In this document: positions 5,991 through 34,113 of the stretch, in pieces
Layout of the letters: every line of letters starts with the position of its first letter
Position numbering within the stretch: the first letter of the stretch is position 1
The notes under the pieces: model-generated
Told to the model about the DNA's origin: nothing
Databases searched by the model: none
What the model saw: only the letters and a program-made list of their open reading frames with translations
Program-made: the position numbers and the translations under genes
Assembly (NCBI GenBank): GCA_964609035.1
Contig: CAZSQL010000003.1
Coordinates: 4,058-68,057, forward strand
DNA: 64,000 nt
Direction of reading: 5' to 3'
Source: an uncultured Candidatus Peribacteria bacterium
GTDB lineage: Bacteria; Patescibacteriota; Gracilibacteria; Absconditabacterales; Absconditicoccaceae

Positions 5991-6188
5991 GGGGCTTCTT
6001 CATCTTTAAAAATAAGAAAAATCCAAATTGGGATACATATCCTCACCCCGCAATTCTGCGGGGTTCAGTCATCTAACAGCCACTATCCGACATCTTCGTT
6101 ACACTCAGACATCGGACCATCGGCAAACGTTATACGTCATAGTCCCATCTATAAAAAAAACATAAAGAGACAGGAAGAGCTCTTTTTT
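5991..6188 (+). ncRNA. Candidate structured RNA / repeat element, family member A
   Basis: 5' GCUuCUUC pairs with 3' GAAGAGC. Internal TAAC..GCC..GGC-AAAC-GTTA helix covaries with members B and D. Carries the CCCCGCAATTCTGCGGGG hairpin (6046-6063). Ends in the palindrome AAGAGCTCTT plus a T-run. Confidence 0.35.
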
Positions 6189-6196
6189 ATTTTAAC

Positions 6197-6547
6197 TTAA
6201 TTTTTTTTAGAAAATGACTTCTCTCGCCCGACTAACTGCTTACTAATAGACTCAATCATCTGATTGATAACAACAAAATCTTTCAAATCAATTTCTCTCA
6301 AATCCTTGCACAATCTTATCAACAATCTCACTACTTCGATATATCCTCTCGCCTGTTCTAGATAATTCTGTTTTTCTATGTGTGAATTAGCACGATAGAT
6401 AGCAATAATCAAGTCAATAGCTTCTTTCTTGATCGTTTCTCACAGCGTGTATTTGTAATCTCTTTTGAAATTACGTACGACCAAAAATAACTTTTGCAAC
6501 AAATCGTAGGAAACTTTGTAAACAGGTAAATTATCGTATATTGCCAT
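6197..6547 (-). CDS. avd: DGR accessory variability determinant (Avd; four-helix-bundle / 23S rRNA IVS protein family)
   Basis: MAIYDNLPVYKVSYDLLQKLF...IAIYRANS...VRLLIRLCKDL. Start overlaps the RT 3' end by 17 nt. Joins ORF-track pieces 6440..6673 and 6197..6412 through a TGA. Confidence 0.75.
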
Positions 6548-7748
6548 GGCAATATCATTGAGGATAAAGATTTTTAATTTCAGAAGATTTGAGTTTTCTG
6601 ATATTGGGAATGGCTTTTGCATATGATTTTGTGAAATGGAATTGTGACCAAAACTTATTGGAGAATTTATCAATCACTTTCTTTCTGATGTTGTACGTTC
6701 TATAATGATTGAGAATTCATAGGTAGGAATTAACTATCGATTGCGTAAGCTCTTTATCAAAATTTTTGCTTTTATTCACTTCCTGCACTTTTTTGTAAAA
6801 ATTCCCAATCGTTCTTTTGCGTATATAGGTACGATACGGCTTGATATATGCTCAAAGAAATTGTGCTCACTTGGTATAATGTTGAAAATAGATTTTCTTG
6901 GGATGAAGCGTAAGATGTAATTTTTTAGTCAGAAAATCTCTAATTTTGGAAATCGCAGAAAGTAATTTTTCCTTGTCAGTATCGATGATAACAAAATCAT
7001 CTACATATCTGCCATAATACGAAAATCCTAGTTCATACTTAATATATTTATCCAAACTATCCAAGTAAATATTGGCAAATAACTGACTTGTTAAATTTCA
7101 AATTGCAAGTCCTGTGTCCTTCGGAGAGTGAAACAGACTTTTGTCGTTTGGTAATCAATTTCAGTCAGATTTGGATCATTTGATAATGCAATTCTGAGTA
7201 GAATCATGAAATATGACCTGACGAATAAGTTTGATGAGAAAATCGTAATCAATAGTCAATCTTTCCCTTTTTTCGAACAAAAATGTTTCAATTTTTTCAA
7301 ACAATATCTGTTTGTCAATGTGCATAAAAAATCACTTGATATCGAGCTTGAGAATATAAACATCGCGACTATAATTTTGCGAGCAAGAACGAAGAAAATG
7401 TTCTACTCTTTTGATGCCAAAATGTGTTCACTTTTCTAATCTGCAGCTATAACTATCATAGATAAAATGACGATCAAATAGTTCGTAAATATAATTGTAA
7501 ATCAAGTGATGAATTATTCTATCACGAAAATCCGCGGCGAAAACTTCCCTTTGGACGGGATCTTTGATGATAAAGCAGATACTGGGACTGATAGCATAAG
7601 TTTCGTTCACTAAATCATTTCGCAATTCAATAATTTTTGATTCATAATTCATTTCAAAAGCAACAGCAGAATTTGTATTTCTTTTATGCTGACGAGTATC
7701 GTAGTATGCTTGGAATAAATCATAAAGTAGCTTGTCTGTATCTAACAT
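6531..7748 (-). CDS. Diversity-generating retroelement reverse transcriptase
   Basis: 405 aa joined from three ORF-track pieces in one frame. DGR-specific motif LAIGNLTSQLFANIYL (Gly is TGA) and catalytic YGRYVDDFVII. Confidence 0.9.
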
Positions 7749-7767
7749 TTTTCATAATCATATAAAA

Positions 7768-7806
7768 GCTGACCGAACCCCGCAGAATTGCGGAGAAATG
7801 ATCAGC
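7768..7806 (-). promoter_or_regulatory. Stem-loop in the TR-to-RT spacer of the DGR RNA
   Basis: Outer stem GCTGACC/GATCAGC (with a G-T pair) encloses CCGCAGAATTGCGG (7778-7793). Lies between the TR end (7814) and the RT start (7748). Confidence 0.5.
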
Positions 7807-7813
7807 TTATTCC

Positions 7814-7977
7814 AGTTCTTGAGCAGACGACCGCTGAAACCATAATTTCTATTATTATTGTTTCGATTCCATTTATTCTGATTGAAGTTTGCATTGTTTC
7901 CACCAGCCAACCAAACGTTGGATCGTTCTCCGATATTGTTGAATTTATTATTATTCGGATTCCAGTAGCCCGCAAGG
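7814..7977 (-). repeat. DGR template repeat (TR)
   Basis: 164 nt, aligns gap-free with 8241..8404. 20 mismatches, 18 of them at TR adenines on the coding strand. Rich in AAT/AAC codons. The 3' 28 nt (GGTTTCAGCGGTCGTCTGCTCAAGAACT) is identical to VR. Confidence 0.85.
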
Positions 7978-8133
7978 AATAAAGATAGCCACTAACTTTG
8001 TCATACTATCCTAGCGAATAATATGATCTTTTACTACCATACAGTTTTATATGGTGGGCTATTGAACTAGACATACACGCTCCTTGTTCCCGTAAGAACA
8101 AAGACTCTGGCAAAAAATCTTATAGAGAAAAAT

Positions 8134-8158
8134 GGACAAAATGCAAAGCATTTTGTCC
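8134..8158 (-). terminator. Hairpin terminator downstream of the DGR target gene
   Basis: Perfect 11-bp stem GGACAAAATGC-AAA-GCATTTTGTCC, followed on the minus strand by ATTTTT. Confidence 0.5.
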
Positions 8159-8223
8159 ACCGATATTTTGTTGAATTAGATTTTTTGCTTGAAATAGTCA
8201 ACATAGACAAATAGTCGGATGTT

Positions 8224-8236
8224 TCGGCTACGCCGA
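8224..8236 (-). promoter_or_regulatory. Short GC hairpin immediately 3' of VR (candidate DGR target-recognition hairpin)
   Basis: TCGGC-TAC-GCCGA begins 3 nt past the target stop codon and VR end. Position matches the hairpin/cruciform described downstream of VRs. Confidence 0.45.
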
Positions 8237-8238
8237 GT

Positions 8239-8997
8239 CTAGTTCTTGAGCAGACGACCGCTGAAACCATAATTCCTGTTAAAATTGTATCAACTCCATT
8301 CATACTGATCGAAGTCTGCACCGTCCCCACCAGCCAACCAAACGTGGGATCGTTCTCCGATATTGCTGAAAATATCATTATTCGGATTCCAGTAGCCCGC
8401 AAGGTGACCCTTGACTTCTTTATTAAAGAATTTCTTGTATTCGTCAGAACGATCTGGTTTATCTTTCATTTTCTCTTTAAGTTCATCAACCGTCATCAGA
8501 TATTTCTGTTCAACTTCTTCCTTGCTGCAATTCTTAGCTTTCATCACTTCTCTGATAAATGCATCATAAGTAATGAATATTTGTTCTCATTTTGCTGGTC
8601 ATTCAAGATATTCTACCACGTCTCACGTAGCATTTACTTTTACTTTCATCTCTCCTTTATTATAAACATTCCTTTTTTCTTCTTTCCATCCTTTGCTATC
8701 GATTTTGAACGTATCTTCCTCGAATTCTAATGATTTAGTAAGTGTTTCTTTGGATTCTTTTTTGCTAGAAACTTTCTTTTTAAGTTCATCGCCTCCATGA
8801 AGCATATTGTAGGCTTCTTCAAAAGAAACGCCCATTTTTTCAGCGACTTTTTTGATAAGTGCTATATCTTCTTTACGAATTTTTATTGTCTGTTGAAATC
8901 ATTCTGTTTGTTTTCGTCCATCTCTAGTTTGCTTAATAGTTTCTTGTGTCTTTTTCTTTTTTTGAGAAACATATTCTGCAACTTCATCATCAGACAT
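8239..8997 (-). CDS. DGR target (variable) protein, C-type-lectin/FISUMP-like C-terminus carrying VR
   Basis: 252 aa, ATG 8997 to TAG 8239. C-terminus ...LAGYWNPNNDIFSNIGE(CGA)SHVWLAGGDGADFDQYEWSGYNFNRNYGFSGRLLKN. Three ORF-track fragments in one frame joined by TGA. Confidence 0.8.
8241..8404 (-). repeat. DGR variable repeat (VR)
   Basis: Last 164 nt of the target CDS. Counterpart of TR 7814..7977 with adenine-specific differences. Confidence 0.85.
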
Positions 8998-9342
8998 AAC
9001 TTCTGCAAGTTTCTTTTGCTGTTCTTAAGTAATAGCACCTTGTTTCTTAATATTCTTGAGTATCGCTCAATTTTCTCTGATAATGTCTTGTGTTTTTTTG
9101 ATTTGATTGTTCATAGGAATAAAAGTAATGAAGTAAAGTTATGTAGTAATTATAATCAGAATTTTTTATTTTGCAAATTTTTGAAAGAGAAAATTTTACT
9201 GGTAAAATCTATCTGTTTTAGTTAGGTTTTAACACTTGAATCTTTTAAAGATTTTCAATAATTTACACTTGATTCTATTTTGCGAATTCTTATATTTTTA
9301 TCGGAAAAGACAAACTAAATATTTACGTATAATCGCTAATAA

Positions 9343-9936
9343 ATGGCTAATTTAAAAGACAAATTACTTAACTTAAACAAAGAAATACTAAAAAAAGATT
9401 TTTTAGAGAAATTAGTAAAGAGATTTTGATATACCTACGAAATGGACGATTTATCCAATCTGGGGTATATCTCCGTGATAAAAAATGGTAAACGATATTA
9501 TAATAATCAGATCAAAACCATCAAAAATCCGTATATCATCTGAGCTGCGTATATGGACTTCAAAGACTATATGTTCTGATGACCAAATTTCTTCAATAGA
9601 TACGGCTTTACGACTCAAGTTTCCAATATTTTCACCGTATATAATCTTCATTATTCCAAAGAGATCGAAATACTCGGAATCAAATATAATTTCAAGAAAG
9701 TAAAAAAAGAGTTTCTCTATGGGAAAGACACAAAAATGATCAATTATCACAATCTGTATTTTATGAATAAAGAAAGATGCTTTCTTGAATTTGTAAGGAC
9801 ATATAGCTCGTATGACGATACATTCTTCATAGATAGCTATAAGCTTTTAGATAAAGAGAATTTAGCCAAAATGATAAAAAAGTATCCTATCAAATCCGTT
9901 TTAGATAAAGTAAAAAATATAGAAAAATGTATATAA
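9343..9936 (+). CDS. AbiEi-like antitoxin / transcriptional regulator
   Basis: 197 aa. ...LSNLGYISVIKNGK.YY... resembles the AbiEi wHTH region. Stop overlaps the start of the downstream AbiEii gene by 10 nt. Confidence 0.55.
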
Positions 9937-10784
9937 ACAATATCAAAAAGTTTATTTGAGTAGATTTTGATTATTCCAAAAAAGATTTTCTTGAAATATT
10001 GGAATTATCCAATAGTTATGGATTCGACGCATATAAACTCGAAAAAGACTTTCTTCTGACGGTTATCTTGATTTTCATCTGAAGAAATTATAAGGAACTG
10101 ATTTTCAAAGGATGAACTTGTCTCAACAAAATTTATCTTGATTATTTCAGATTGAGCGAAGATTTAGATTTTGTAGTGATCAATACATGAAATAGAACAG
10201 AAAGAAAAGCGATATTAGAAGACTACAAACAGAGATTGACCAAAGATTTGGCTACACTCGGACTGGAAATCACCGATCAAAGAACGAAATATAACGAAGA
10301 TAGACAATGAATCTTCAATTTTTCGTATATTTCGCTCATAGACAATTCCCCACAAAATATTCAGATAGATATCACCATGAAAGAAAGATTAGAAATTGAG
10401 CCTGTAAGCAAACACATAAAATCGATTTTTATCAGCAAGACTATGGAAGAAAGCATTTTCATTGAAAACACAATAACCTGTATGGAATTTGATGAAATAG
10501 TTGCAGAAAAGACAAGAGCGAGTCTTACAAGAATACAACCGGCAATTAGGGATTTTTTTGATGTCTGGTATATCAAGAATTTTGCAAAATTCGACTTTGA
10601 AAGAATTATGGATTTGATAGAGACAAAACTGGAAGAATCGAATCATGAATATACTATTAATGAAAGCTTCGATTTGCTCGAAAAACAGATTGAAACAGAT
10701 TTGAAGCCCGTATTGAAAAAGAATTTCGAATTTGACCTGAAAGAGATATTCGAATTCATCAAACAACTGAAAACAAAAAAATAA
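9927..10784 (+). CDS. AbiEii/AbiGii-family nucleotidyltransferase toxin (DUF1814)
   Basis: 285 aa. LEKDFLLTVILIFI...LIFKGGTCLNKIYLDYFRLSEDLDFV is the family hallmark. Extends ORF-track 10377..10784 upstream through TGA codons. Confidence 0.8.
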
Positions 10785-10845
10785 TGAGCTGAATGTGAGC
10801 CACAAATGAGCCAAATAAATTTTAACTTTTTTTTAATTTAATTTA

Positions 10846-11037
10846 GAAGAGCCCTTCCTTTTAGTGATTGTGGGTTTAATTACGGACTACGAACCTACAA
10901 CACGCACTATCCGATATCCCCGACCTAATGGACTTCAACGGTTCGTCGGAGCATCGGACTAGTGCGAAACGTTGTCTGTCATATCCCTATAAGCAACTAA
11001 GTCCTTTCAGAAAGAAATTTAGAGGGGATTTTTTTTA
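10846..11037 (+). ncRNA. Candidate structured RNA / repeat element, family member B
   Basis: Closing pairing CCCTTC/GAGGGG. Nested helices ACAAC/GTTGT, CGCAC/GTGCG, TCCGAT/ATCGGA, CCGAC/GTCGG with a conserved unpaired AAAC. Ends GGGGA plus T8. Flanked on both sides by TTTTTTTTAATTTAATTT. Confidence 0.4.
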
Positions 11038-11176
11038 ATTTAATTTTTTTAGAAAAAGAAAACCCGCCACCACGAAGGTAAACGGGAAATGCTTTTTTAA
11101 CAACTCGAAATGAAAAATGTTTAAGTTATCACTATTTTTCTAAAGCATAACTAATTAAGATTCATTGTAACTAATG

Positions 11177-11201
11177 AAGCTCGGATGTGCCGAGCTTTTT
11201 C
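11177..11201 (+). terminator. Rho-independent terminator
   Basis: AAGCTCGG-ATGTG-CCGAGCTT followed by TTTC. Closes a roughly 150-nt unit that starts after the third TTAATTTAATTT..TAG motif. Confidence 0.6.
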
Positions 11202-11347
11202 TAATTATTAAAATATATATCATAATAAGTGCTTATTTCATTAATTAAGTATTTCTATTTAAAATAAGAAAAAATATAAAATACCGTATTATCCTAAAAA
11301 CAATACAAAAAATTTAAAGCAATTATACCAATACAATTAAGTCTAAT

Positions 11348-11968
11348 CTAAATAGTCCAAGACCCACGAATAACTCAAACTAAATAATAATATCATTGAT
11401 ATTCTTCAAAAACCAATGTAAGACTCATTCGATCCAATCATTCATATTGTGGATCAAATCAATCAAAATAATATTCTATCGATTCAGCACCAGGAAAAAC
11501 ATCATCAATATTATTTAAGTTATTTCATCTAGCAATTTTTTGATTTATCAAAATTTGGTCCGCATATAAGAATCCTGTAGAATAAACCCATTTTTTAAAA
11601 TAATTATATTTGGTCTCAATCAACTCAAAACCAGCTCCATCTGTATATCCCCACAAGAAAGTACCACTATTCAAATCACCTTGAAAATCATCTGGATACA
11701 AAACCATAGAATGATCTAGATCAACATAAGTATATGGAGAAAACCTAACTCATTTAACAGGATGTGCAAAATCAGACATTTCACTCCACTTGTCTCATTG
11801 CATCAAAGTCAATATATCTCTAGAATAATCAACAATATCAAAGTTTTTATTTATACTTTCTCAACTACCTAAAGATTGATTCTCTCAATCAAAAATATCT
11901 GTTTTTAAAGAACATCAAAACAAAAATAATGATATAATAACAAACAACATTAAAAGAACTTTTTTCAT
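11348..11968 (-). CDS. Hypothetical lipoprotein
   Basis: MKKVLLMLFVIISLFLFGCS: signal peptide plus lipobox whose Gly is TGA. 206 aa, ATG to TAG. Confidence 0.6.
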
Positions 11969-12023
11969 TTTAAATTTTAAAAAATAAAATCTATCTAAAA
12001 AGTCTTAAACCAAAATTACATAA

Positions 12024-12125
12024 AAGGTTTCAAAGGGCGCAACAGGTTTCAATAGGCTGAAAAGAGCATGACTTTTGTAACCCTTGCAACTTTGTAACCT
12101 TTGTAACTTTGTGGCCATTGAAACT
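12024..12125. repeat. Dyad array of GGTTTCAAT / TTGTAAC words (family 1)
   Basis: Left arm GGTTTCAAAGGGCGCAACAGGTTTCAATAGG, centre AAAGAGCATGAC, right arm CCTTGCAACTTTGTAACCTTTGTAAC. Same layout at 30944, 38755 and 43925. Confidence 0.7.
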
Positions 12126-12133
12126 TGATAACC

Positions 12134-12598
12134 TTATACTTTTAACTTGATAACTGTCTTTATATCTTCCAACCTATAACCTTTTCTCATAAGTTTTTGA
12201 ATAATATCAAATCAATCAACTCATCTTTTTTTGTAAGAATCTATTTCTTTTCTAATTTTCTGAAAAACACCAACAGATATATCTTCTTGATAGTCTTTTA
12301 TCACTTCATTTATCAATTTTTTGTCTACTCATTTTTGATATAATTTGTTAGTCACGGCAATTACTGGCTTTCATTTATTTACCAATTCGCTCCTAATATA
12401 ACTTTCTGCAAAAACTCTATCATCAGCAAATTTTTTTGATTTGAGATAATCCATCGTATATCTTATTTCATCACTATTATATCATTTTTGTTGCAATTTA
12501 ATTCTCAATTCTTTTTCAGTTTTTGGATAAACAGAAATGTATTTTAAAGCATACTGACAACAATCAGAATATAATGTTTTCTCTTCTTGTGTTGCCAT
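12134..12598 (-). CDS. recX: RecX family regulatory protein
   Basis: 154 aa. ...CCQYALKYISVYPKTEKELRIKLQQKGYNSDEIRYTMDYLKSKKFADDRVFAESYIRS... three-repeat helical RecX pattern. Confidence 0.7.
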
Positions 12599-12600
12599 AA

Positions 12601-13227
12601 TTATTTTTTTAAACTAAAAGTAACAGTTTTTTCATCAATATTGAATATAGAAATAATATCTCATTCTTGTTTTGAGCTTTCAATAGACTCCAAAAGCGCT
12701 TCTGTAGACAAAAATTCTGAAAACTTTGTGATAACAGAAACCATGTATTCATCATTTGTATGGTAAAACATCTTTACTTTGTCATCTACATTGTAATCCA
12801 CATCTTTTCTCATTTGATTTAAAAATCTAGAAACTTCTCTAGCCATTCATTCCATTTCAAGCTCTGGAGTGAGCTGTAAATCTAATTTTGCTATAACTCC
12901 ACCATCGATAGCCACATCATCTCCATCCAAACCTTGATAAGCTATTTCATAATCTTCTTTTTCCAAAATCCATTCATTTCCATTTTCATCAAAAACTTTT
13001 ACTTTTCATTCTCAAAGTTCTGTGATATTTCACATTTTTCCATATTTAATAATATTACCAGTATCTTTTGCAAATTTAGCAGACAATGCAGATCATAAAG
13101 GTTTAAATACTTTTGTAATTTTTATATCATCACCAAAAGATTGAATATCTTTTACATTAATTTCTTCCTTAATAATATTTCAATACTTGTCCAAAACATA
13201 ATCTACAGAAAAATCTCACATAATCAT
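12601..13227 (-). CDS. Stand-alone ORF equal to the C-terminal region of type-2 isoleucyl-tRNA synthetase
   Basis: 208 aa. FKPLGSALSAKFAKDTGNIIKY...AKLDLQLTPELEMEGMAREVSRFLNQMRKDVDYNVDDKV matches the IleRS C-terminal pattern (LD..IT.EL..EG.ARE..R.IQ..RK). No catalytic domain lies upstream. Confidence 0.5.
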
Positions 13228-13484
13228 AATTTTAAATTATAAAAATAATAATACTCTATATCATCAAACATCTTTTATTTATTTAAGTTTGATTTTCAAT
13301 TCAATAATTTAAGAAAAGTTTATTAAAGTACTTTTTACTAAAACAAAGTTAAATACTAAGAAACAGAATCAATTCTTGCATTTGAGGAAGAAATATTTAA
13401 TAATCAAGTATACACTGAAAAACTTGTTTTTTATACAAATCATGTTCCTATTTGTTACATAAGTAAGTAGCAAATGAAACATTA

Positions 13485-13560
13485 GTACAACTACTAGTTG
13501 TCTGTCATATCCCTAGAAGTAAATAAGTCCTTTCTGAAAGAAATTTGGAGGAGATTTTTT
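13485..13560 (+). repeat. Structured element family, reduced member C
   Basis: GTACAAC-TACTA-GTTGTCTGTCATATCCCTAGAAGTAAATAAGTCCTTTCTGAAAGAAATTTGGAGGAGA plus T-run. The 3' module is near-identical to that of B. Confidence 0.35.
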
Positions 13561-13578
13561 ATTTTAATTTAGATTTTT

Positions 13579-14358
13579 TTATATTCTAACACGTGTGTTC
13601 ATATGCTTTTCAAAAACATCCTTTAATTTTGTAATATATGTACCTACTTCTTTTAGTTCTTCTTTAGTTTTTTTATCTTTAGTATTATTAAACAGATAAC
13701 CATATAATTTTATCATATCATCAAGTATTTTTTTATTCATCATAAACCCATTCATTTTTTTATTGGTTTGTTGTATCTGATAAACACACTCATGTAAAAA
13801 CTTTTTTCCCAAAGGATAAAGTTCTTCTTCATTTTTTGCATCATTAAATTGATGTAAAATTTCATTAAATGTTCAATCAGGATCCCAATTATTGGTTTTT
13901 TTTATTCATGATAAATACAAATTTCAAATTTCATTTCTTAAACCATCAAACGAACCAATAAATCCTTTTTTTAATTTAATCAACTCCTCATTTTCACCAA
14001 CATTTTCTTTATTTTCTATTATTTCCTCTTTTTTTTCAGAATTTGTATTATCTTTTTCATCATTCAATTGTCACATCAAATCATCCATTTTACTATTTTT
14101 TTCTTCATCTGCTTTCATTTTCATATTATCCATCTCTTTTTTATGTTCTTCAGTATTGGCTTCTATTTGATCAACTTTTTCAGAAATGTCAGATTCTGAC
14201 GCTTCTGTTGTTTCTTTAGATTTAAGTTCTTTTATCTGATCTCTTATTTTTATAGCTTCCTCAAAATTATCTGATTCTACAGCTTCAGCTTTTTTTGCTT
14301 CAAGGTCTTTAATAAGCTCCTCATTAGTCTTTTCTGAAATATTAATTGAATTAATCAT
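13579..14358 (-). CDS. Hypothetical acidic protein with UVR-like motif
   Basis: 259 aa from two same-frame ORF-track pieces. ESDNFEEAIKIRDQIKELK resembles a UvrB/C (UVR) motif. Confidence 0.5.
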
Positions 14359-14465
14359 GATGACAATATTTTATGAAGTAAATTACACTTATAAAGTGTA
14401 ATCAGAATCAAAAAAAATGCAAATTTTACGCTTGATTTATCTTATTTTTATCTTAATTTAATTTA

Positions 14466-14563
14466 GAAAAAATCCCCTCCAAGTAACTAAGTAAGGGATA
14501 CGAACAGACAACAGCCGATACATGACATAACAAGTACGTCACAAAATCGGCAAACGTTGTCGG
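14466..14563 (+). ncRNA. Candidate structured RNA / repeat element, family member D
   Basis: GACAAC-A-GCCGAT...ATCGGC-AAAC-GTTGTC helix covaries with A and B. Preceded by TTAATTTAATTTAG. Confidence 0.35.
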
Positions 14564-14628
14564 AAAAGTTCAAAATAAACAAAAAAAGTGACATTACTGC
14601 TACTTAATATTTCTAAAACAAACAAAAA

Positions 14629-14844: not shown

Positions 14845-14874
14845 TTTGTTTTATTTAAATATGTAAATAATTAT

Positions 14875-15962: not shown

Positions 15963-15981
15963 TTTAATTTATTTTTAATAG

Positions 15982-17844: not shown

Positions 17845-17850
17845 TTTAAT

Positions 17851-19371
<1,521 letters not shown>

Positions 19372-24260: not shown

Positions 24261-24356
24261 CGTTTATATTTAATAGAATTAAAGTTTTTACTATTCAATT
24301 TTCACAGCGAAAAGAAATAAAAATTTTTTAATTAAATCTCACTTCTAATTTCTCAC

Positions 24357-25919
24357 TTATCACTTATCAATTAAATAAAGTTCTCTCTTGTCCAATATTT
24401 TCATCCCTCTTTTCAAATCATTTTTGTCATTTGCATAAAGTTGGCACAAAACGTCTCATTTTTTTACTAATTCTCAAACCTGCTTATTTAAATAAAATCA
24501 AGCTTGCTTATCCAATGGTGCTCCAAAAATTCTACATATTTTTTTCAACAATTCTACATCCATACTTTTGAGTTTACCAGATTTCTTGGCTATTAGTTTC
24601 TGAGAAAATTTAGCCAATGGTAGTTCTTCGGAGTCCAAAACTCATAAATATGAAGTATTTTTATAATCTGGTTTTACATTATGAATACTATTTTGAGACT
24701 GAATTAACTTTTGCATATATTCCCATGCCAATCAAGACTCTAATTGTTTTTTAGCTAATCAAATAGCCTTATCTCATCTTGCCAATCAAACTAACTCTAT
24801 CAATTTAGCAGACAAACTAATCGCTTTTTTCTTTATATCTTTTGAAAAAATTTTTTTGTTTTGTAATACTCTAAGAGCTTCCCTCGTTTGTAAAACTGCT
24901 CCAATTCACTTACCAATAGGATTATCTGCATTTGTTATATCCACAAAAACCTTCATTCCAAGCTTTTTTCAAATATATTCAAAATGTCACGCGATTCTTT
25001 TTGCTGTCTTTTTGTCAGGTATCTTTCAATTCTTTCAGACAGGTAAATCAATAAGACAATATTTTGTTCATCCAGCATAAATTTTAGCCATTATACTAAT
25101 TGCAACCTTGGCATAAGCTTCCATATACAATGGATATGAAACTTTTATAATTCTATCATTTGCAGGAGCAAATTTCAAAGATTTTCAATTTGCCAAACAA
25201 GATCAAGTCTTATCCACCAAATGCTTCATCTCTTGGACAGAAAATTCAGTATCCATAAGTACTTCCACACACTCACCCGTTGCAGCAGGCGAAGTAATAG
25301 CTTTTGAAAAAGTTTTTGGACTAGAAATACCAAGTGAACCAAGTATTGGAACTATAATCATAGTTGTTTCATTTCATGGCACACCACCAATACAATATTT
25401 TACAGCAGTATCATGTTTAAATTTTATCATATCTCACATCTCAGCAGAATACTTAGCAGTCAAATAAAGTTCTTCTTCATCACTAGGATAAGCAAAACTA
25501 CAAGCTGCATAATATGCAGTAAGTAAATCACTAATTTTGCCATCTGTCATATCTCTCATCAAAGCTTTTATTTCCTCCTCATTTAATTTTTTGCCCAAAA
25601 GCTTTTTCTTTATAGCTTGCAAAGACAATGGATTTGTCTCAAGAGTAGATATAGAAACAATATCTCATTTTTTTATTTCATATTTATCAAAAATATCTTG
25701 CGTAATTCAAACTTCTCAAATATCCACTAAATCATTGGTCAAATCAACATTTACAACTATATTCTCCCACTTATTGTTTTTTTTATAAGACAAAATAACA
25801 TCATCAATCGCTGTTATGCCAAATTTAAAAGCTTCAGCCTCATTCAACAAAATCTGCAAGCTATTTCCTGCTCTTATATCTATTTGTTTTACTTTTACAG
25901 GGAAGGTTTTATGTTTCAT
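24357..25919 (-). CDS. AMP phosphorylase (thymidine phosphorylase family), paralog 2
   Basis: 520 aa. KYCIGGVPGNETTMIIVP. Same architecture as 17851..19371. ORF-track pieces 25716..25919 and 25434..25628 are in frame. Confidence 0.8.
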
Positions 25920-25959
25920 GAACTAAGTTATCAAGTTAAAAGTTTGCAAGTTATCAAGT

Positions 25960-26694
25960 TTAATGTTTTTTTGTATCAATAAGTTTTCAATCTAAAAGTT
26001 CCAACAATTCTTTTGTGTCAGATACCTCATAATTAGATCTTATTCATTTATTCTCTTTATTAAATCTATTAAGCCAAACTCACTTAATTCACAATGCTTG
26101 AGCTCAATCAATATCTCTTTCTATATTATCTCAAACCATTACACAATCTTTTGCCAAAACTCAAAGTTTATGTGCAGCCAAAAGAAATGTACTTGGATGT
26201 GGTTTTTCTATTCAAGCTTCTTCTGATGTTACCAAAACATCTATATATTGAGATATTCACAACAATTCCATTTTCTTTAATTGAGAATACGTTTGAGAAT
26301 CAGTTATAATTCAAGTTTTAATTCAATTTGATTTCAAAAATTTCAATACTTTTATTGCATATTTATCCTTTTTGATATTTTTAAAAAAAGTATCCCAATA
26401 TAATCTAAAAAGTTCAACTATATATTTGGCTTCTATTTTATGCTTTATTTTAGAATTTAATAACTCAAACAATTTCTGAAAATATAAATCTCTATTGTGT
26501 GATGCAGCAGTACCAATCAATTGTTTTTTAACTTCTTTTTGAGCTAATTCAAAAGCTATCTTAACCATTTCAATAGGCATATTTATAATCTCACTAATTC
26601 TATCAAACAACTTAACCAAAGTTTTGTCATGTACTGTCTGATAATCAAACAATGTATCATCCAAATCAAACAATACTGCTTTTATTTTACCCAT
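25960..26694 (-). CDS. HAD-IA family hydrolase
   Basis: MGKIKAVLFDLDDTL (DxDxT), ...GIITDS..., VMVGDNIERDIDGAQALG. Confidence 0.7.
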
Positions 26695-26795
26695 TTTTTT
26701 ATAACCCAAACTAAAACAATTTTCACAACTTTTAAGTTGCCTAACCTACCTATCGAAGGTAGACTTGATAACTCTAAAACTTGACAAACTTTTAA

Positions 26796-27716
26796 CTACT
26801 CCAGCATCCAAGGATATCTTTTTTCTATCTCTTTCACTAAATTTTCAGGTCTAATAACTCCAAACTCAGTAATAATTCACGTAATACACTTAGCAGGAAC
26901 TAGATCAAAAGCATAGTTGAGTATGTCCAATCCTTCTGGTGCTTCTGGCCAAAGTTCTTTGCCAGATCTAGTCTCTATTCATATAGTATTTGTCATGTCG
27001 ACTTTAAGCAAACTTCAAACTATATACAAAGGTATACCAGAATGCCAAGCAGACAAGGCTATAGAATAGCTTCCCACCTTATTTATTGTATCTCCATTTG
27101 TTCTAATACAATCTGATCACAAAAATACTTTGTGTATATCTAAATCATTTTCATATATATTATCTACAAAAAATGGAGCAGAACTATCTGTAATCATGGT
27201 ATTTGGCACACCAGCAGATACCAAATCTTTTGAAGTTTTTCTTCATTGATACAATGGTCTTGTTTCAGTATTGTAAACATGTATTTTTTTTCAATTATCC
27301 CATGCTGTTTTCAAAATTTTAGTAACCGAACCTGAATGACAATGTGTCACAATATTTTCACCACTATCAATCAACTCAGCACCAAGCCCTGTCCTAATCT
27401 TTTCTTCTTCATTTATCCAAGTTAAGTACTCTGCAAAAGCATCTGCAATTTCAATAGCACTTGCTCCATGATTTAATTTAAATCTAGCATATTTCATACC
27501 ATTACGAAGCATTGGCTCAGTTTCTCTAGCCTCTATAAGAAGTCTTGTTGATTTATCAAAAAATATTTTCAATTCTTTTTTACTAGAAAATTTTTTGCTA
27601 CGAAGCTGTTTTTCCATTACTTTACAGGCCTCTCTAGCAATATTAGTAGCTCATTGTATTGTAATAGTACCAATATCATCAGCTATTTTTAATATAATAT
27701 CATCAATTTTTACCAT
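26796..27716 (-). CDS. Ribose-1,5-bisphosphate isomerase (eIF-2B alpha/beta/delta family)
   Basis: 306 aa. ...IVTHCHSGSV...ETRPLYQGRKT...FLGSDCIRTNGDTINKVGSY. Confidence 0.8.
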
Positions 27717-27904
27717 GTTTTATTTTAGAATTTTAAAACATCATTTAATTATATATTATTTCATATTTTTTTGCAAATTTTTGAGGATTTTGTAAATGTA
27801 CTTGTTTTATTAATCACCCCCTATCCCCCGGGAATATAATTTACTTGCAAAACCATATTTTTTCAAATAGATCTCGGTAGTCGGGTTTGTTTAATAAAAC
27901 AGAT

Positions 27905-28250
27905 GGAAATTATTTTCTGTCTCCCCATCTTGCAGGCGCGTTGTCATTGCGAGGTTTACTCGGCAGTATTGCCGAGAAATCGAAGCAATCTGCACTCGCG
28001 CCTACATTGATTGTGAGTTTTATTTTCTGTCTCCCTCCTCTTGCAGGCGCGAATTCGAATTCGCGCCTACATTGATTGGAGATTTTGTTTTCTATCTCCC
28101 TTTGTCCTAAATCACCCACTATGCCCCTCTTTGATAAAGAGGGGGAATATTATCTGAATAAGCACCTCTTTGCCTGCCCCGCAGAACTGCGGTTGGTCAA
28201 AGAGGACCACCCTCTCCTCAGAGGAGAGGGGTTGGGGGAGAGGTCTGACT
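27905..28250. repeat. Cluster of GC-rich REP-like hairpins (locus 1)
   Basis: TGCAGGCGCG...CGCGCCTACA units (28041-28070 contains the perfect 24-nt palindrome AGGCGCGAATTCGAATTCGCGCCT). Also CTCGGCAGTATTGCCGAG, CCCCTCTTTGATAAAGAGGGG, CCGCAGAACTGCGG, CCCTCTCCTCAGAGGAGAGGG. Homologous to part of 61090-61250. Confidence 0.75.
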
Positions 28251-28254
28251 ATCA

Positions 28255-30921
28255 TTAACTTCTTCACTTCTTAATCCTATTTACCACAAACGCCAACACA
28301 AACAAAACCAACAATATTATTGCTATTTGCAACCACATCATAGATGATAATGGTTTTGTCTGAAATATTTCTGCCAAAAATGGAACATAAACCACCAAAA
28401 ACACTAATCCAACAGACAATAATACTGCACCAAAAAGCCATTTGTTTGACCAAAATGGTAAATTATATTCATCTCTAATCATCCATATTCTAAGCATCTC
28501 CAACAAAGTCAAAAGCACAAAAACTCAAGTCCTAGCTTCCACAAGATCTATTGAGTAGTTTTCCATAAACAAAAACAAACATCAAGCAGTCATAGCAATA
28601 GATAGGATTATTATATTTATTATCATATTTCTATCTACAATCTTAGATCACAATCTTCTAGGTTTGTGCGACATAATATCTGGACTAGCTGGATCTACTC
28701 ACAAAGCAAGAGCTGGCAATCCATCGCTCACAAGATTGATCCACAAAATTTGTATTGCTATCAAAGGCAAAGGTAACCCAATCAACACACTTATAAAAAT
28801 AATCAGTATCTCAGCAAAATTGGTAGAAAGAAGATAATTTACAAATTTTTTGATATTATCATAAATTCATCTTCACTCATATATGGCGTTTACTATCGTA
28901 GCAAAATTATCATCCAAAAGTATCATATCACTTGCTTCTTTAGTCACATCTGTGCCAGTAATTCACATCGCCAGACCAATATCAGCATACTTCAAAGCTG
29001 GAGCATCATTGACCCCATCTCCAGTCATAGCTACTATATTTCATTTTTTCTTCAAAAGTTTGACTATTCTCTGTTTGTGAGCAGGACTAACTCTAGCAAA
29101 TACTCAAATATCATCTATCATTTTTCATAATTTTTTGTCATCTATCTTGTCCAATTCCAGCCCATCCATAGCCATTCACTTAATTCAAAGTTCATGAGCT
29201 ATAGCTTTGGCTGTAATCACATTGTCTCCAGTAATCATAACTACTCTAATCCCGGCTCTTTCACAAATAGCTATCGAATCCCTTACTTCTATTCTAGGCG
29301 GATCTATCATCGCCTGCAACCCCACAAACACCAATCATGATTCTAATTGATAATTGATAGTTGATAGTTGATAATTATCAATTTTCAATTTTCAATTATC
29401 AACTGATTTATATGCAAACCCAAGCACTCTCAAAGCAGATTCTGCAAATTTTTTATTTTGATCTAATATTTGTTTCTTATCTTTTTCTGTCATCTTTTTT
29501 ATCTCACCATTTATCAACACATGACTACACTTCTCCAATAAAATTTCAGGCGCCCCCTTACTAAACATAATTCACTCTTCACTTTTCACTCTTCACTCTT
29601 CACTATATATCGTCGTCATCAACTTCCTCTCAGAATCAAAAGGAATTTCATCCAACAATTTATATTGTTTTTCCAAATCTTTTCTTACAAGTCATCATTT
29701 GATAGCACTGACAAGCAAAGCCACCTCAGTAGGATCTCAAACAATATTTTCTCAATTTATAGCAGAATTGTTGCACAAAACTCAAATTTTTAATATCTGT
29801 TCTAGTGAATTTATATTTTCTTTATTTTTGGACAGAAAATCTTTTTTTCCAAAATCTTGATAACCTACTCCATCCAAATCAAAAACCTTATCGTCTACAA
29901 AAATATGTTTTACTGTCATTTCATTTTTGGTCAAAGTTCATGTTTTGTCTGTACAGATAATATTTACAGATCACAATGTCTCTACACTAGAAAGTTTTCT
30001 CATCAAGGCATTTTTTTTGACCAATCTTTTTACTCACAATCACAAAGCAATAGTCACTACAGCAGGAAGTCACTCTGGTATCGCTGCTACAGATAAAGCT
30101 ATAGCTACCAAAAATGCTTGCTGCCAAGTATTTCAGACAAAAAATATAGCACTCACAAAAATAACTGCACATATCACAATCACTACAGCACCAAGCCATT
30201 TACTCAATTTATCTAAATCTTTTTGTAAATTAGTTTGTTTTTCTGGAGCTTCTTGTATCATACCAGCAATTTTACCAATCTCAGTCTGCATACCAATAGC
30301 TACCACAATAGCTCTACCATGTCATTTGGTCACTACAGTACCAGCAAAAAGCATATTTTTTTGGTCTCACAAAGCCGAATCTTTGTTTATAGTTTCTATA
30401 TTTTTGGCAACCGGCATAGACTCACCTGTCAGTACAGCTTCGGCCACTTCAGCACTCATAGATTGTATTATACGAGCATCAGCTCAGATTTTATCTCCTG
30501 CATCAAAAATCAAAATATCTCATACAGTCAAATACTGTGAATCTATCAATATCTCTTTTCCATTTCTGATTACTCTAGATTTCAAACTAGCCATCTTTTT
30601 CAAAGATTCTATAGACTTCTCAGCCTTGTATTCTTGTACAAAACCAAGTATTGAATTTAAAATTACTATCAAAATAATCACCACACTATCTACGGCTTCT
30701 CATACAAATATGGAAACTACAGCAGCAATAATCAATATCAAAATAAGAAAACTTTTGAACTGATTCAAGAAAACTTTCCAAGCACTGATTTTCTTTTCAT
30801 TGGTCAAAATATTTAATCCATATTTTTCTTGCTTATCTTGGACTTGTTTGTCAGTCAATCAAATTTCCACATCTACAGCCAATTCTTTGGCTACATTTTC
30901 TATAGGTTTTTGGTAATACAT
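28255..30921 (-). CDS. P-type cation-transporting ATPase (P2, Ca2+/SERCA-like)
   Basis: 888 aa. ICTDKTGTLT (Gly is TGA), [28 protein letters not shown]. The ORF-track C-terminal piece 28264..28518 ends at a TGA, so the gene continues 3 codons to TAA. Confidence 0.9.
29347..29402. repeat. Imperfect 56-nt palindrome of TTGATAATT words lying in frame inside the ATPase CDS
   Basis: TTGATAATTGATAGTTGATAGTTGATAATT|ATCAATTTTCAATTTTCAATTATCAA. Translates without stops as ...[21 protein letters not shown]... just before [10 protein letters not shown]. Confidence 0.8.
29571..29603. repeat. Tandem TTCACTC/TTCACTT words in frame inside the ATPase CDS
   Basis: TTCACTCTTCACTTTTCACTCTTCACTCTTCAC encodes SEEGRVKSEEG immediately before the conserved KGAPE. 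Confidence 0.75.
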
Positions 30922-30943
30922 AAACGACAGTTAAAAATAAAAA

Positions 30944-31080
30944 AGTTGCAAAGGTTACAATGTCTTAAAGGTTACAATGTTTCAAAGGCTATAAAGTTGC
31001 AAGAATTGCAAAGTCCATACTCTTTGAAACCTATTGCAACATATTGAAACCCGTTGCAACCTTTGATACCTTTGGAACCT
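30944..31080. repeat. Dyad array of TTGCAA/TTACAA/TTGAAAC words (family 1, inverted copy)
   Basis: GTTGCAAAGGTTACAATG...centre AGTCCATACTCTTT (reverse complement of the AAAGAGCATGG centre)...GAAACCTATTGCAACATATTGAAACCCGTTGCAACC. Confidence 0.7.
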
Positions 31081-31291
31081 TTTAATAATTATACCCACCA
31101 TACCCAAAAATAGCAAAAACAAACAAAAGCTAAGCGAAGATTTGTTTGACAAATAAAGAAAATATTAGATTGAAAAAAAATAACCAATCATTATACTAAG
31201 CACTAGTAATAAAGTTATCAAGTTCATCAAGTTTATAAAGTCTTATACTTTTAACTTGAAAACTTTTAACTTTATAACTTTACACTAACTT

Positions 31292-31682
31292 GGGGATGTA
31301 CAGGCTTCGATGAAAGATTCTCATATCTAATAACTGCCACTACTCGATGAGCGTACCGAGTATACTAATCGCTCAGCATCTAAAAATGCAAACTCAAAAA
31401 ACTTGTTAGCGAGAGCTAACGCCTTCGTTTTGAACTACGCTTAGTTCTACGATTGTATCAACCGGTTCTGCTAGACACCTACTAGGTAGACGGAGACATA
31501 AGTAGGTACCGCTACCTCTGGTAGCAAATGTCGATATGACAAAAAATCCATTGCCTGTTTGTTGGCTTTTGGATTTGCCAGTCATAAGGACACTAAATCT
31601 ACGGCTTAATAAACAAACTATTGTGGTAAGCGTTATTATTTATGTCTTTTAGACGCGAGTTCGACTCTCGCCATCTCCACCA
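31292..31682 (+). ncRNA. ssrA: tmRNA (transfer-messenger RNA)
   Basis: 5' GGGGATGTACAGGCTTCGATG..., 3' ...GGACGCGAGTTCGACTCTCGCCATCTCCACCA (T-arm plus acceptor). Candidate tag frame GCA AAC TCA...TAC GCT TAG gives ANSKNLLARANAFVLNYA. Confidence 0.9.
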
Positions 31683-31716
31683 AAAAAGATGAATCATAAA
31701 GACAAAATACCAAAAT

Positions 31717-31745
31717 CTCAGAGAGCAATCTTTGAGGTTTTTTTA
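31717..31745 (+). terminator. Terminator after tmRNA
   Basis: CTCAGAG-AGCAAT-CTTTGAG (one G-T pair) followed by GTTTTTTT. Confidence 0.55.
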
Positions 31746-31819
31746 GTTTGAAAATGATTTGAAAAAGAATATATGAGAGATAAGAATTTATTTTTTTAGT
31801 ATAAAATATTTTTAATAAA

Positions 31820-32161
31820 ATGAAAATAAAAGAACTGCAAAAATTAGTTACAGATTTTAGAGATAAAAGAGACCGAAAACAATTTCATAATCCAAAAGAT
31901 TTAGTAGAGGCTATTTCTATAGAATGTTGAGAACTAATGGAGCATTTCCTTTGGAAATCACAACAAGAATCACAAAAAATTGCGGAAAATAATAATGATA
32001 TTGCAGAAGAATTTGCTGATATAATGAACTATTTATTATTATTCGCGGATATTTGTAATATAGATATAGAAGAATCCATTATCAAAAAGATCAAAAAAAA
32101 CAATTTAAAATACCCTGTAGAAAAATCTAAATGAAAAAGTGATAAATACAATAAACTTTAA
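31820..32161 (+). CDS. MazG-like nucleotide pyrophosphohydrolase
   Basis: 113 aa. FRDKRD(CGA)KQFHNPKDLVEAISIECGELMEHFLW...EEFADIMNYLLLFA, the all-alpha NTP-PPase pattern. Confidence 0.75.
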
Positions 32162-32184
32162 AATTTTTAATCAAAAAATATAAT

Positions 32185-33795
32185 ATGTGAGCTACTATAA
32201 TAGATATTCCATTCAATAAAAAAGAAATAGACTGATTTATGTATTATCATCGAGATTATGATAGTCGACCAGTAGTTTATCTTATAAAAGGAGAAAAACA
32301 TATCTATATTGGAGAAACAACGAATGCTTATAAAAGGATGAAAGATCATCTAAAGAATACAGAAAGAACAGATTTATTAAATGAAGTATTAATTTTATAT
32401 GATCCAGAATATAATAAATCAGCCACATTAGATATAGAATCTAAATTAATAGAATATATTTCTGGAGAAGATTCCTTTATTTTACAAAACAGAAACGATG
32501 GAATAAGGAATCATCAGTATTATGATCGTGAAAAATATCTTGCCAAATTTGAAGACGTGTGGAAAGACTTACAGAACAAAAGAATAGTATATAAAGATTT
32601 GAATGAAATAAGAAATAGTGATTTATTTAAATATTCTCCATATAAATCACTAAATAACGATCAATATAATGTTGTTACAGAAATATACGAAGATATTAAA
32701 AACAAAAGAAATTGAACATATATTGTTAATTGAGAACCAGGTACATGAAAAAGTGTTGTAGCAAGCTATTTAGTAAAATATTTAAAAGATAAAAACGATA
32801 CAAAGAATTTGAAAGTTGGTCTTGTTGTCCCTATGGCATGATTAAGAAATACTTTTAAAAAAATCTTTAAAAATATAGATTGATTGAAATCTAGTATGGT
32901 TATTTGACCAAATGAGATTGCAAAAGATTATTCAAACACAAACAAAACCCCATATGATATATTAATTGTAGATGAAGCTCACAGACTACAAAAAAGAAAA
33001 AATATAATGTGATATGGTGCTTATGATGATGTTAATAGAAAACTATGATTATCAAAAGAATCAACTCAATTAGATCGATTAATTAATTTATCAAAAACAC
33101 AAATATTATTTTATGATAAAAACCAATCAATAAAACCATCAGACGTGAATTCAGAAGATTTTGAAAAAATTAAACAAACAAAACATTATGTTTTAAAAAG
33201 TCAGATGAGAGTTAATTGATGAAATGAATATTTGAATTTTATAAATAATTTTTTCGATTGATTAAATCCAGATTTTATTAAAGTAAAAAATTATGATTTT
33301 AAATTATTTGATAATTTTAAAGATTTTAGAAATAATATCTTAGAAAAAGATAAAGAGTTCTGATTGTCTAGAATAGTCGCTTGATATGCACGATCACGAA
33401 CTTCTAAAAATAACCCCAATCAACATGATATAGAAATAGATTGAGTAAAAATGTTTTGGAATACTACAAATAAAGATTGGGTAAACTCTGAAAACGCTTT
33501 ACATGAAATATGATGTATTCATACTGTACAATGATATGACCTAAACTATGTATGAGTAATTTTATGAAATGAGCTATCTTACAATAAAGAAACTGGGGAA
33601 TTTATTATTAATAAAGATAATTATTATGATAAAAATTGAAAGAATTGAATTACAGATATGTATGAATTAAAAAGATATATAATAAATATATATAAAACCT
33701 TAATGACACGCGGGATTAAATGAACTTATATATATGTGGTAGATGATAATTTAAGAGAATATCTAAAAAGTAAAATAAAGTGATTTTTTTACTAG
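32185..33795 (+). CDS. GIY-YIG nuclease domain fused to DUF2075 (Schlafen-like) P-loop ATPase/helicase
   Basis: 536 aa. VVYLIKGEKHIYIGETTNAYKRMKDH (GIY-YIG), NGEPGTGKS (both Gly TGA), ILIVDEAHRL, SQMRVNGG, AGYA(CGA)S(CGA)TS, IHTVQGYDLNYVGVILG. The start may instead be 32239. Confidence 0.75.
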
Positions 33796-33816
33796 ACCCC
33801 AGGGTCTAACAAAAAT

Positions 33817-33984
33817 CTATCTTCCCCTTCCCCTAGCTCCTCTACTATTCTGAGACCTATTCAAATCGCCATCAGTCCTTCTAGGTTTTTTGTGAATTCT
33901 TTTTGGACCATATCACTCCTGTGACTGAGAATCTCTCCTTGGTGGATATTTTTTTGGTCATTCTGATTTATAATGAGACGCCAT
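33817..33984 (-). CDS. Basic RG-rich ORF, in frame with and probably once part of the helicase C-terminal tail
   Basis: MASHYKSEGPKKYPPRRDSQSQEGYGPKRIHKKPRRTDGDLNRSQNSRGARGRGR. Same frame as 34081..35385 with only one TAA (34081-34083) between them. Confidence 0.3.
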
Positions 33985-34017
33985 GAAAAATTGAATAATT
34001 GAAATTTTTCAAACGTC

Positions 34018-34113
34018 GAATTTATACCGACAGATATTAGAAACTTTTAGATCAACCCCGCAGTATTGCGGGGGAAGAGATTAAAAATTTCTAATGCGCT
34101 TCGGTATAAATTC
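34018..34113. repeat. 96-nt imperfect palindromic element overlapping the helicase stop codon
   Basis: GAATTTATACCG/CGGTATAAATTC (12 bp), ATTAGAAA/TTTCTAAT (8 bp), apical CCCCGCA-GTAT-TGCGGGG (34056-34073). Length is a multiple of 3. Confidence 0.75.

Follow-up and report, generated by a model that had tools for sequence, protein, structure and literature searches.

A dispersed GC-rich hairpin of code-25 Patescibacteria and its probable capture as an optional cap by a diversity-generating retroelement

The hairpin CCCCGCA-N4-TGCGGGG recurs at four places in a 64,000-nucleotide stretch (the window; contig C3:4058-68057) of the genome of an uncultured Candidatus Peribacteria bacterium. One of these places lies within a diversity-generating retroelement (DGR), in the short spacer between its template repeat (TR) and its reverse transcriptase (RT) gene. 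We find that the hairpin is dispersed over the whole genome, that it occurs lineage-wide, and that its presence is independent of RT genes. It is probably a lineage-specific dispersed GC-rich hairpin cassette that sits at the tip of unrelated stems, and which the DGR has captured as an optional cap.

The genome (G000; 1.156 Mb in 83 contigs, 28% GC) departs from translation table 11, under which the window has almost no long open reading frames (ORFs); with TGA taken as sense it is full of genes. Furthermore, TGA stands at conserved glycine positions of the RT frame (...EK*TH...), and a tRNA-Gly(UCA) gene was found in the genome. Taken together, these three observations establish that the genome uses code 25 (UGA = Gly), as in Gracilibacteria/Absconditabacteria-type Patescibacteria. 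GC-rich inserts carry no stop codons under this code. As GC-rich repeats stay open and make false genes, an ORF-based classing of hairpin positions as convergent, tandem or divergent is unreliable, and was not used as evidence.

Distribution of the hairpin in the genome and among relatives

Direct reading of the sequence recovered the four CCCCGCA-type hairpins and the related CTCGGCA hairpin at the places where a preliminary description of this DNA had put them:

6046..6063, plus strand: site 1, CCCCGCA-ATTC-TGCGGGG; a stem of 7 bp without mismatch, in the opposite orientation to the spacer copy, at the tip of the variable arm of element A (see below)
7778..7795, minus strand: site 2, CCCCGCA-GAAT-TGCGGAG as read on the plus strand; the inner hairpin of the TR-to-RT spacer
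28177..28194, minus strand: site 3, CCCCGCA-GAAC-TGCGGTT; pairs only in the 5-bp core CCGCA/TGCGG
34056..34073, no strand assigned: site 4, CCCCGCA-GTAT-TGCGGGG; a perfect stem at the tip of the 34018..34113 palindrome
34018..34113, no strand assigned: the family A copy bearing site 4; 96 nt (32 codons), within the reading frame of a DEAD-box helicase gene, in its C-terminal tail
27958..27975, no strand assigned: the related hairpin CTCGGCA-GTAT-TGCCGAG; tip of an insert within a GTAG-type REP (repetitive extragenic palindromic) hairpin at 27932-28005

In the window there are four occurrences of the core CCGCA-N4-TGCGG, as against none in 100 dinucleotide-preserving shuffles, and a search with the 18-mer hairpin allowing up to two mismatches had the same outcome (4 in the window, 0 in the shuffles). 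Against the density in the genome as a whole, 1.3 hairpins would be expected in the window (P ~0.05). The genome contains 24 CCGCA-N3-6-TGCGG hairpins on 17 contigs, most of them intergenic and a few within genes. GC-rich hairpins of the type with 5 bp in the stem and 4 nt in the loop number 101, and about half of them have the stem CCGCA (23) or CCCGA (25); CCGCA and CCCGA-N4-TCGGG are the two dominant stock hairpins of a genome that is full of nested GC-rich hairpin families. At the gathering threshold, Rfam recognizes only a tmRNA across the window, and the hairpin is covered by no known family. Sites 1 and 3 are not followed by a U-tract, and the orientation relative to transcription is mixed, with site 1 opposite to sites 2-4.

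The CCGCA core is common to at least four contexts that are defined by their flanks: 1) family A, a palindrome of some 90 nt in at least seven copies, site 4 among them; 2) TTCTTCT-hairpin-ATCAGAATGAC, which resembles both DGR copies; 3) three-hairpin units flanked as ...ATTA-hairpin-CACAGGC; and 4) a CCTCTTTGCCTG...CAAAGAGG unit, which includes site 3. Across these unrelated flanks, and across genera, the 14-nt core is strictly conserved, and the loops are largely of the form GNAY or RTNC.

The immediate surroundings of sites 3 and 4 agree with the earlier account. Site 3 is nested in CCTCTTTG/CAAAGAGG (28165-28172 / 28198-28205) and lies 62 nt behind the stop codon of a P-type ATPase gene, within a 540-nt hairpin cluster. 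BLAST matches copies with shared flanks at C2:18559 and C2:62813, the latter with a nested insert, and finds further copies at C24:15702 and C20:1. In two of these copies on C2, C20 and C24 a second hairpin is nested in the CCGCA arm. The REP type that carries the related hairpin also has a plain copy at 28043-28070. Site 4 lies at the apex of the 96-nt palindrome (fold of -42.6 to -44.4 kcal/mol, z ~ -8), which supplies the TAA stop of the helicase; the frame is open for 88 more codons, with an RG-rich end. The only true orthologue of the helicase (in G001, 72% identical) is on a contig that ends before the tail. Among the family A copies, two contain nested inserts, and in one a C-G pair has become T-A by a compensatory change. 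Sites 3 and 4 are the tips of two other repeat families; in the case of site 4, a palindrome of this 90-nt kind has probably landed inside the helicase gene.

We then sampled eight congeners, ten other genera of the family and twelve other families of the class. The pattern CCCGCA-N4-TGCGGG is present in all eight congeners (2-79 copies), in five of the ten other genera and in one of the twelve other families, as against no match of the reversed control pattern in any family member and 1 in two more distant genomes. RT homologues (E<=1e-20) were detected in only two of the eight congeners and in four other genera. Since the hairpin occurs in every congener and an RT homologue in two, hairpin abundance is independent of the DGR. 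The extreme case is G008, with 79 hairpins, no RT homologue at this threshold and no Y1 transposase match. The preliminary description had suggested a test of co-occurrence with RT genes in related genomes, and had regarded an abundant genome-wide repeat without enrichment at the DGR as telling against a DGR-linked role. The hairpins do not track RT, six of the eight congeners being without an RT homologue, and 24 copies in unrelated contexts, together with the congeners in which no RT homologue was detected, describe a repeat of just that kind.

G008 also has a tandem array (L016, G008:C33:5800-7400) of at least eleven equal-length 88-nt units, each with a long hairpin capped by CCCCGCA-GTYT-TGCGGGG. 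This array is not CRISPR-like, because the AT-rich linker repeats too.

The DGR spacer, its orthologues and the copy behind avd

The DGR is genuine: under code 25 its genes give Pfam matches to RVT_1 and bAvd, and all its parts are on the minus strand:

8239-8997, minus strand: target gene, which ends in the variable repeat
8238..8404, minus strand: variable repeat (VR), the 3' end of the target gene
8223..8237, minus strand: small hairpin CUCGGC-GUA-GCCGA(A), immediately behind the stop of the target gene
8161-8131, minus strand: strong terminator-like hairpin
7978..8111, minus strand: RT-7-like structured RNA motif (Rfam RF03028), directly upstream of TR
7811..7977, minus strand: TR, a 167-nt direct repeat with VR
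7760..7807, minus strand: composite spacer stem-loop, the outer stem around site 2, then a U-tract
6531..7748, minus strand: RT gene (code 25; Pfam RVT_1, E = 1.9e-17)
6197..6550, minus strand: avd, for a bAvd-like accessory protein (Pfam bAvd, E = 6.9e-12)
5989..6194, minus strand: element A, structured, about 200 nt, follows avd

TR and VR are 87% identical, and 18 of their 21 mismatches fall at TR adenines. The RF03028 match is full-length (46.4 bits, E ~1e-9), below the gathering score of 116.8, and suggests that the RT-7 motif class belongs to DGRs with the order VR, RT-7, TR, RT, avd. The only other RT gene of the genome, at C58:1483-2307, is 29% identical to the DGR RT.

The TR-to-RT spacer is 62 nt long and carries site 2, which on the DGR sense strand reads CUCCGCA-AUUC-UGCGGGG, the single non-Watson-Crick position being a U.G wobble. 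The second stem that had been noted around it is indeed present, at 7767-7774 / 7800-7807: the arms AGCUGAUC/GGUCAGCU (7800-7807 / 7767-7774) enclose site 2 and are followed on the minus strand by UUUUAUAU. The result is a terminator-like GC-rich stem-loop with a UUUUAU tail (-23.5 kcal/mol, z = -4.9). To judge from its sequence, this composite stem-loop and U-tract would form the 3' end of the TR RNA, and most likely both end and stabilize a non-coding RNA made up of the RT-7-like motif, TR and the hairpin.

A scan of metagenomes with the invariant 3' end of TR yielded 12 loci, with RTs 78-88% identical to the present one. Over the orthologous DGRs that were compared, RT identity is 74-88%: L030 is the closest (88%), L024 has 86% and L002 74%. 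The orthologue spacers align in register. They keep the TTTTAT tract as well as the outer stem AGCTGATC...GGTCAGCT, of which there are variants such as GCTGGTT/AACCAGC in L024 and GCCGGTT/AACCGG in L002. Three of the eight pairs of the outer helix are changed on both sides across seven orthologues; thus, the outer stem covaries. The inner hairpin is present in our DGR (loop ATTC), in L026 and L032/34 (loop GTAT) and in L035/25 (CCCCGCA-ACTC-TGTGGGG), and wherever present its helix is 100% paired, the sole changes being G.U on the DGR sense strand. It is absent from L030, L024 and L002, all of which have full-length RT genes, the outer stem and the U-tract. The L030 spacer, for instance, reads AGCTGATC-CTCGT-GGTCAGC, with the outer stem closing on the 5-nt loop CTCGT only; in filled as compared with empty spacers this loop is replaced by about 25 nt without any duplication. 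At more distant RT loci of the relatives, eight of nine have an unrelated stem-loop and a T-run at the spacer position. As the inner hairpin is missing from three orthologues that keep stem and U-tract, the conserved feature of these DGRs appears to be a stem-loop and U-tract after TR, with the CCGCA cassette as an optional cap. The cassette would only lengthen an outer stem that works without it, adding stability and being at most mildly useful. Absence of the spacer copy from orthologous DGRs was the second outcome that the preliminary description had held against a DGR-specific role, and the three loci provide it.

The 24-nt inverted near-match to the spacer that had been pointed out at site 1 (6048-6071) is confirmed by BLAST at 95.8% (23/24 nt), and forms part of a 36-nt inverted repeat at 83%. 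Site 1 is the tip of a variable arm in element A, which alignment shows to be collinear after avd in L026, L035 and L024. Element A has about 11 paralogues in the genome away from any RT (nhmmer matches down to E = 7e-17), among them 10827-11042 and 14437-14563 in the window and others on C11, C14, C28 and C63, some behind other genes. The family is bounded by A-rich tracts and a GC clamp, and element A matched neither an Rfam family nor the phage database. At the position of the site 1 arm L026 has GCTTTTGC, L035 and one paralogue have other inserts, and most paralogues are armless. The flanks of site 1 have the spacer copy as their only genomic match (23/24 nt), and L026 possesses the spacer cassette without the avd-side copy. 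The simplest reading is that site 1 is a recent, lineage-specific copy of the spacer cassette that was written locally, in inverted orientation, into the variable arm of the post-avd element. In cassette-free orthologues GGTCA stands beside the insertion point at both recipient sites; since this motif pre-existed there, microhomology may have guided the copying.

The preliminary description had offered two DGR-linked explanations for the extra copies. One was that a second, inverted DGR once lay here and left site 1 and element A as its remnants, an idea that draws on the 24-nt near-copy of the spacer on the opposite strand. There is no TR-, VR-, RT- or avd-like remnant beside site 1, the sole other RT is on contig C58, and the surroundings are the conserved element A, collinear with the post-avd sequence of orthologues and repeated about 11 times away from any RT. 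This explanation is already contradicted, and we give it next to no credence. The other was that the extra copies act as decoys, which fares no better: copy number does not track RT presence, and the avd-side copy is missing from L026, which has the spacer copy.

A broader version holds that the hairpin is a working cis-element of the DGR, which binds RT-Avd or positions the priming site, with the avd-side copy as a decoy or long-range pairing partner. It lies 3' of TR, where a primer-bearing spacer must be; it is kept in four orthologues with only sense-strand G.U changes in the stem; and the two DGR copies are mutually closest and inverted, so that pairing of their RNAs would be possible over 36 nt (83%). 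Also in its favor is the local excess of copies around the DGR, detailed below. Nevertheless, the absence of the hairpin from L030, L024 and L002, the absence of an avd-side partner in L026 and the abundance of the hairpin in congeners where no homologue of the RT was detected all count against such a role. The sense-strand loop ATTC also does not match the GRNA loop of known DGR target-site hairpins. We therefore consider a cis-acting function very improbable.

The DGR target-site hairpin is characterized by a GC-rich stem of 7-10 bp, a 4-nt loop that reads 5'-GRNA on the sense strand, and a location 4-34 bp downstream of VR (PMC3240598). In stem length (7 bp) and loop length (4 nt) sites 1, 2 and 4 resemble it (Guo et al. 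2011, PMC3240598), but the hairpins of our DGR follow TR and avd rather than VR, and on the sense strand the loop reads AUUC at site 2 and GAAU at site 1. A small, covarying hairpin at 8223-8237 belongs to the VR itself, and is likely to be the counterpart of the target-site hairpin. Orthologues have different stems at the same position, such as CCCGCC-AGA-GGCGGG in L024 and TCCGC-TAGAG-GCGGA in L031, and such a position kept with changed sequence (8223-8237; L024, L030, L031) fits a target-site hairpin. The VR-adjacent hairpin and that at 27958-27975 are the only two TCGGC...GCCGA hairpins genome-wide. In L030 an extra hairpin is inserted right behind the VR-adjacent one, and L003 has a CCCCGCA hairpin and U-tract after the target gene.

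With respect to the spacer, Weinberg et al. proposed that RT motifs are DGR-linked and placed RT-10 in the BPP-1 spacer (PMC5737381). Site 2 shares its location with the BPP-1 spacer RNA, a structured priming RNA between TR and RT (PMC5737381). The present DGR differs in that its recognizable motif is upstream of TR, the spacer is short and the inner hairpin is absent in some orthologues. An Rfam search of 5800-8300 by E-value gave no RT-10 match and nothing in the spacer, the RT-7-like match upstream of TR being the only one.

Several observations weigh against the view of the hairpin as a passively captured cassette on a terminating stem-loop. Termination at the spacer stem-loop is predicted from the sequence, and the nested hairpin of the spacer went uncalled in a simple terminator scan. 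The inner hairpin is intact in four diverged orthologues with only sense-compatible wobbles, which fits some selection on the DGR RNA, and the RT tree has too little resolution to distinguish one gain and one loss from several gains. Two of the 24 copies lie within about 675 nt of DGR non-coding DNA (post-hoc Poisson P ~0.006); we ascribe this excess to local copying, although a DGR-linked role would give the same. Finally, no mobilizing enzyme was found for the hairpin, and hairpin counts among the relatives follow neither the number of Y1-transposase genes nor that of GIY-YIG genes.

Insertions in protein genes and tRNA copies

Orthologous sites occur filled, empty and swapped. The clearest protein-coding case is a PLD-like gene (C4:34429-35436; orthologues L044-L051) with an in-frame two-hairpin insert of 19-22 aa, which is present in G000, G007 and G002 and absent from six relatives (five congeners and G009, of another genus). 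The second hairpin and the flanks are common to all three filled genes, and the first hairpin differs per genome: TCCCGCA-AAA-TGCGGGA, GTCACGA-CAAG-TCGTGAC and CCCC-TTAC-GGGG. Comparison of filled and empty sites in this gene revealed no target-site duplication. Further in-frame copies were found in a 1453-aa protein, an SbcC-like protein and a glycosyltransferase.

A second type of location is provided by tRNA genes. Of the 47 tRNA genes, 12 have partial tRNA duplicates within 700 nt, at least 17 in all; duplicates with the 5' part stand upstream of the parent gene, and those with the 3' part downstream of it. In these copies a CCGCA hairpin takes the place of the segment that runs from the 3' strand of the D-arm to the anticodon loop, and in some a CCCGA hairpin takes that of the T-arm; other GC hairpins also serve as the replacement in some copies. 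The loci and the small GIY-YIG ORFs (76-90 aa) that adjoin several of the hairpin-swapped copies are as follows:

C16:17431-17692, C43:4923-5034, C22:4500-4735, C1:10300-10385: tRNA-copy loci in G000
C13:16880-16960, C13:19802-19851, C29:10756-10910, C2:39468-39630: further tRNA-copy loci in G000
C29:10429-10617, C13:19887-20081, C10:1997-2104: GIY-YIG ORFs in G000
C70:2067-2258: GIY-YIG ORF in G001
C2:49504-49695: GIY-YIG ORF in G002

The C22 locus has two hairpin-swapped tRNA-His copies. Swapped copies are also found in G001, G002 and G008, in part as tandem arrays, e.g. three 106-nt units before the tRNA-Val of G008. The GIY-YIG ORF on C13 has a swapped 5' fragment of tRNA-Gly on one side and the intact tRNA-Gly on the other, and that on C10 is split by a CCCGA element and a family A palindrome. 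We set aside a reading of these copies as tRNA introns or functional odd tRNAs; the D-arm 3' strand-anticodon loop segment is replaced and many copies are truncated. The association with GIY-YIG ORFs appears to be undescribed, and the adjacency does not in itself show nuclease-driven spread of the hairpin. None of the four window sites is at a tRNA gene or adjoins a GIY-YIG gene, and their link to the tRNA copies is the hairpin sequence only; by this sequence the window hairpin belongs to a genome-wide repertoire that also marks the tRNA cassettes.

These locations bear on the possibility that the hairpin is the site of a host factor (an RNA-binding protein, an RNase or a DNA-binding protein) and is kept alike by selection rather than by selfish copying. 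The strict conservation of the 14-nt core across contexts and genera, the compensatory change in one family A copy, the loops that largely fit GNAY/RTNC and the many copies just past gene ends are all in keeping with such a site. However, in-frame coding sequence and spare tRNA copies are poor places for a regulatory site, the orientation relative to transcription is mixed, unrelated hairpins are exchanged in at orthologous sites, and the copy number ranges from 2 to 79 among congeners. On balance, we regard a host-factor site as unlikely and favor dispersal of a cassette.

As to how the cassette spreads, we favor a copying and pasting into single-stranded loops, either by template switching or through gene conversion where hairpins are extruded; a structure-specific nuclease may initiate the process. 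A more far-reaching proposal, which we put forward only tentatively, is that code-25 Patescibacteria possess an undescribed copy-and-paste process that writes CCGCA and CCCGA cassettes into loops genome-wide (the tips of terminators and structured RNAs, with the putative terminator of the TR RNA among them, the D, anticodon and T loops of tRNA copies, and in-frame coding DNA) and swaps them at orthologous sites, maybe triggered by the small GIY-YIG nucleases.

Relation to known palindromic repeats and biological implications

The preliminary description had also considered a generic REP-type hairpin captured by the DGR. This idea is supported as far as a dispersed palindrome goes, with 24 copies in the genome, presence in all eight congeners and absence from the spacer of three orthologues; the GTAG foot and the link to a REP-associated tyrosine transposase (RAYT) are lacking. 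REP/BIME and REPIN elements of proteobacteria are mobilized by RAYT (Y1) transposases (PMC3116915). The CCGCA hairpin shares with REP, BIME and REPIN elements its make-up as a short GC-rich imperfect palindrome in tens of copies, its location mostly past gene ends, its lineage-specificity and its clustering with other repeats (PMC3116915). It differs in that tabulation of the flanks revealed no conserved GTAG foot, the flanks being specific to each subfamily, and in that it tips other hairpins rather than standing alone, and occurs also in frame in genes and in tRNA copies.

Other families in the genome do have the GTAG foot, namely GTAG-GCGCGAATTCGAATTCGCGC and GTAG-GGAACGCTCGCGAGCGTTCC. The sole Y1_Tnp match (C20:4766-5005) is flanked by GCGCGAATTC-type REPs and not by CCGCA hairpins. 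Mobilization of the hairpin by a RAYT was therefore rejected: the REPs on either side of the Y1 gene belong to another family, and the presence of Y1 does not track hairpin counts. The RAYT-like gene itself (C20:4259-5338) has GTAG-GCGCGAATTCGAATTCGCGC REP arrays on both sides and is apparently interrupted by a REP array between its HUH motif and its C-terminal Tyr region, with the frame staying open under code 25; the flanking REP also occurs in the window, at 27932-28070.

BOX, RUP and SPRITE, the pneumococcal repeats of the miniature inverted-repeat transposable element (MITE) type, and the Rickettsia palindromic elements (RPE) show comparable nesting, terminator-like stem-loops and in-frame insertions (PMC10969869). 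In-frame insertion of the kind known from Rickettsia palindromic elements is seen in the PLD-like gene, and the helicase tail has its 96-nt insert carrying TAA. The larger units, families A and B, are palindromic. In contrast to those known repeats, the common unit here is only about 18-30 nt long, and the host is a code-25 member of the Patescibacteria. A further difference from MITEs is that filled and empty sites show no terminal inverted repeats or target-site duplications, the loop being replaced instead. Two further systems are similar: the mobile GC clusters in the AT-rich mitochondrial genomes of yeast and, reportedly, the very small dispersed repeats (SDR) that Elhai described in Nostoc. 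Both consist of GC-rich mini-palindromes that lack an enzyme of their own and are found in intergenic DNA, in genes and in RNA genes, often within other hairpins; they differ in lineage and sequence from the present case. Literature searches on palindromic repeats in Absconditabacteria and on DGR spacer terminators returned nothing specific. All in all, the hairpin is one more case of a dispersed palindromic repeat of the REP-, MITE- or RPE-like sort, and fails the tests that define the REP/RAYT system.

For the biology of DGRs, this removes a tempting lead, that of decoys or a second DGR. What emerges for the DGR clade is a picture in which TR is embedded in a compact non-coding unit, comprising the RT-7-like motif, TR, and a covarying stem-loop with a U-tract. 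The close orthologues without the inner hairpin constitute a natural deletion series for it. For annotation, GC hairpins yield long spurious ORFs under code 25 and may pass for functional RNA motifs. More generally, a streamlined, very AT-rich genome that reads UGA as glycine is shown to be riddled with nested GC-rich hairpin cassettes, which reach into protein genes and tRNA gene copies.

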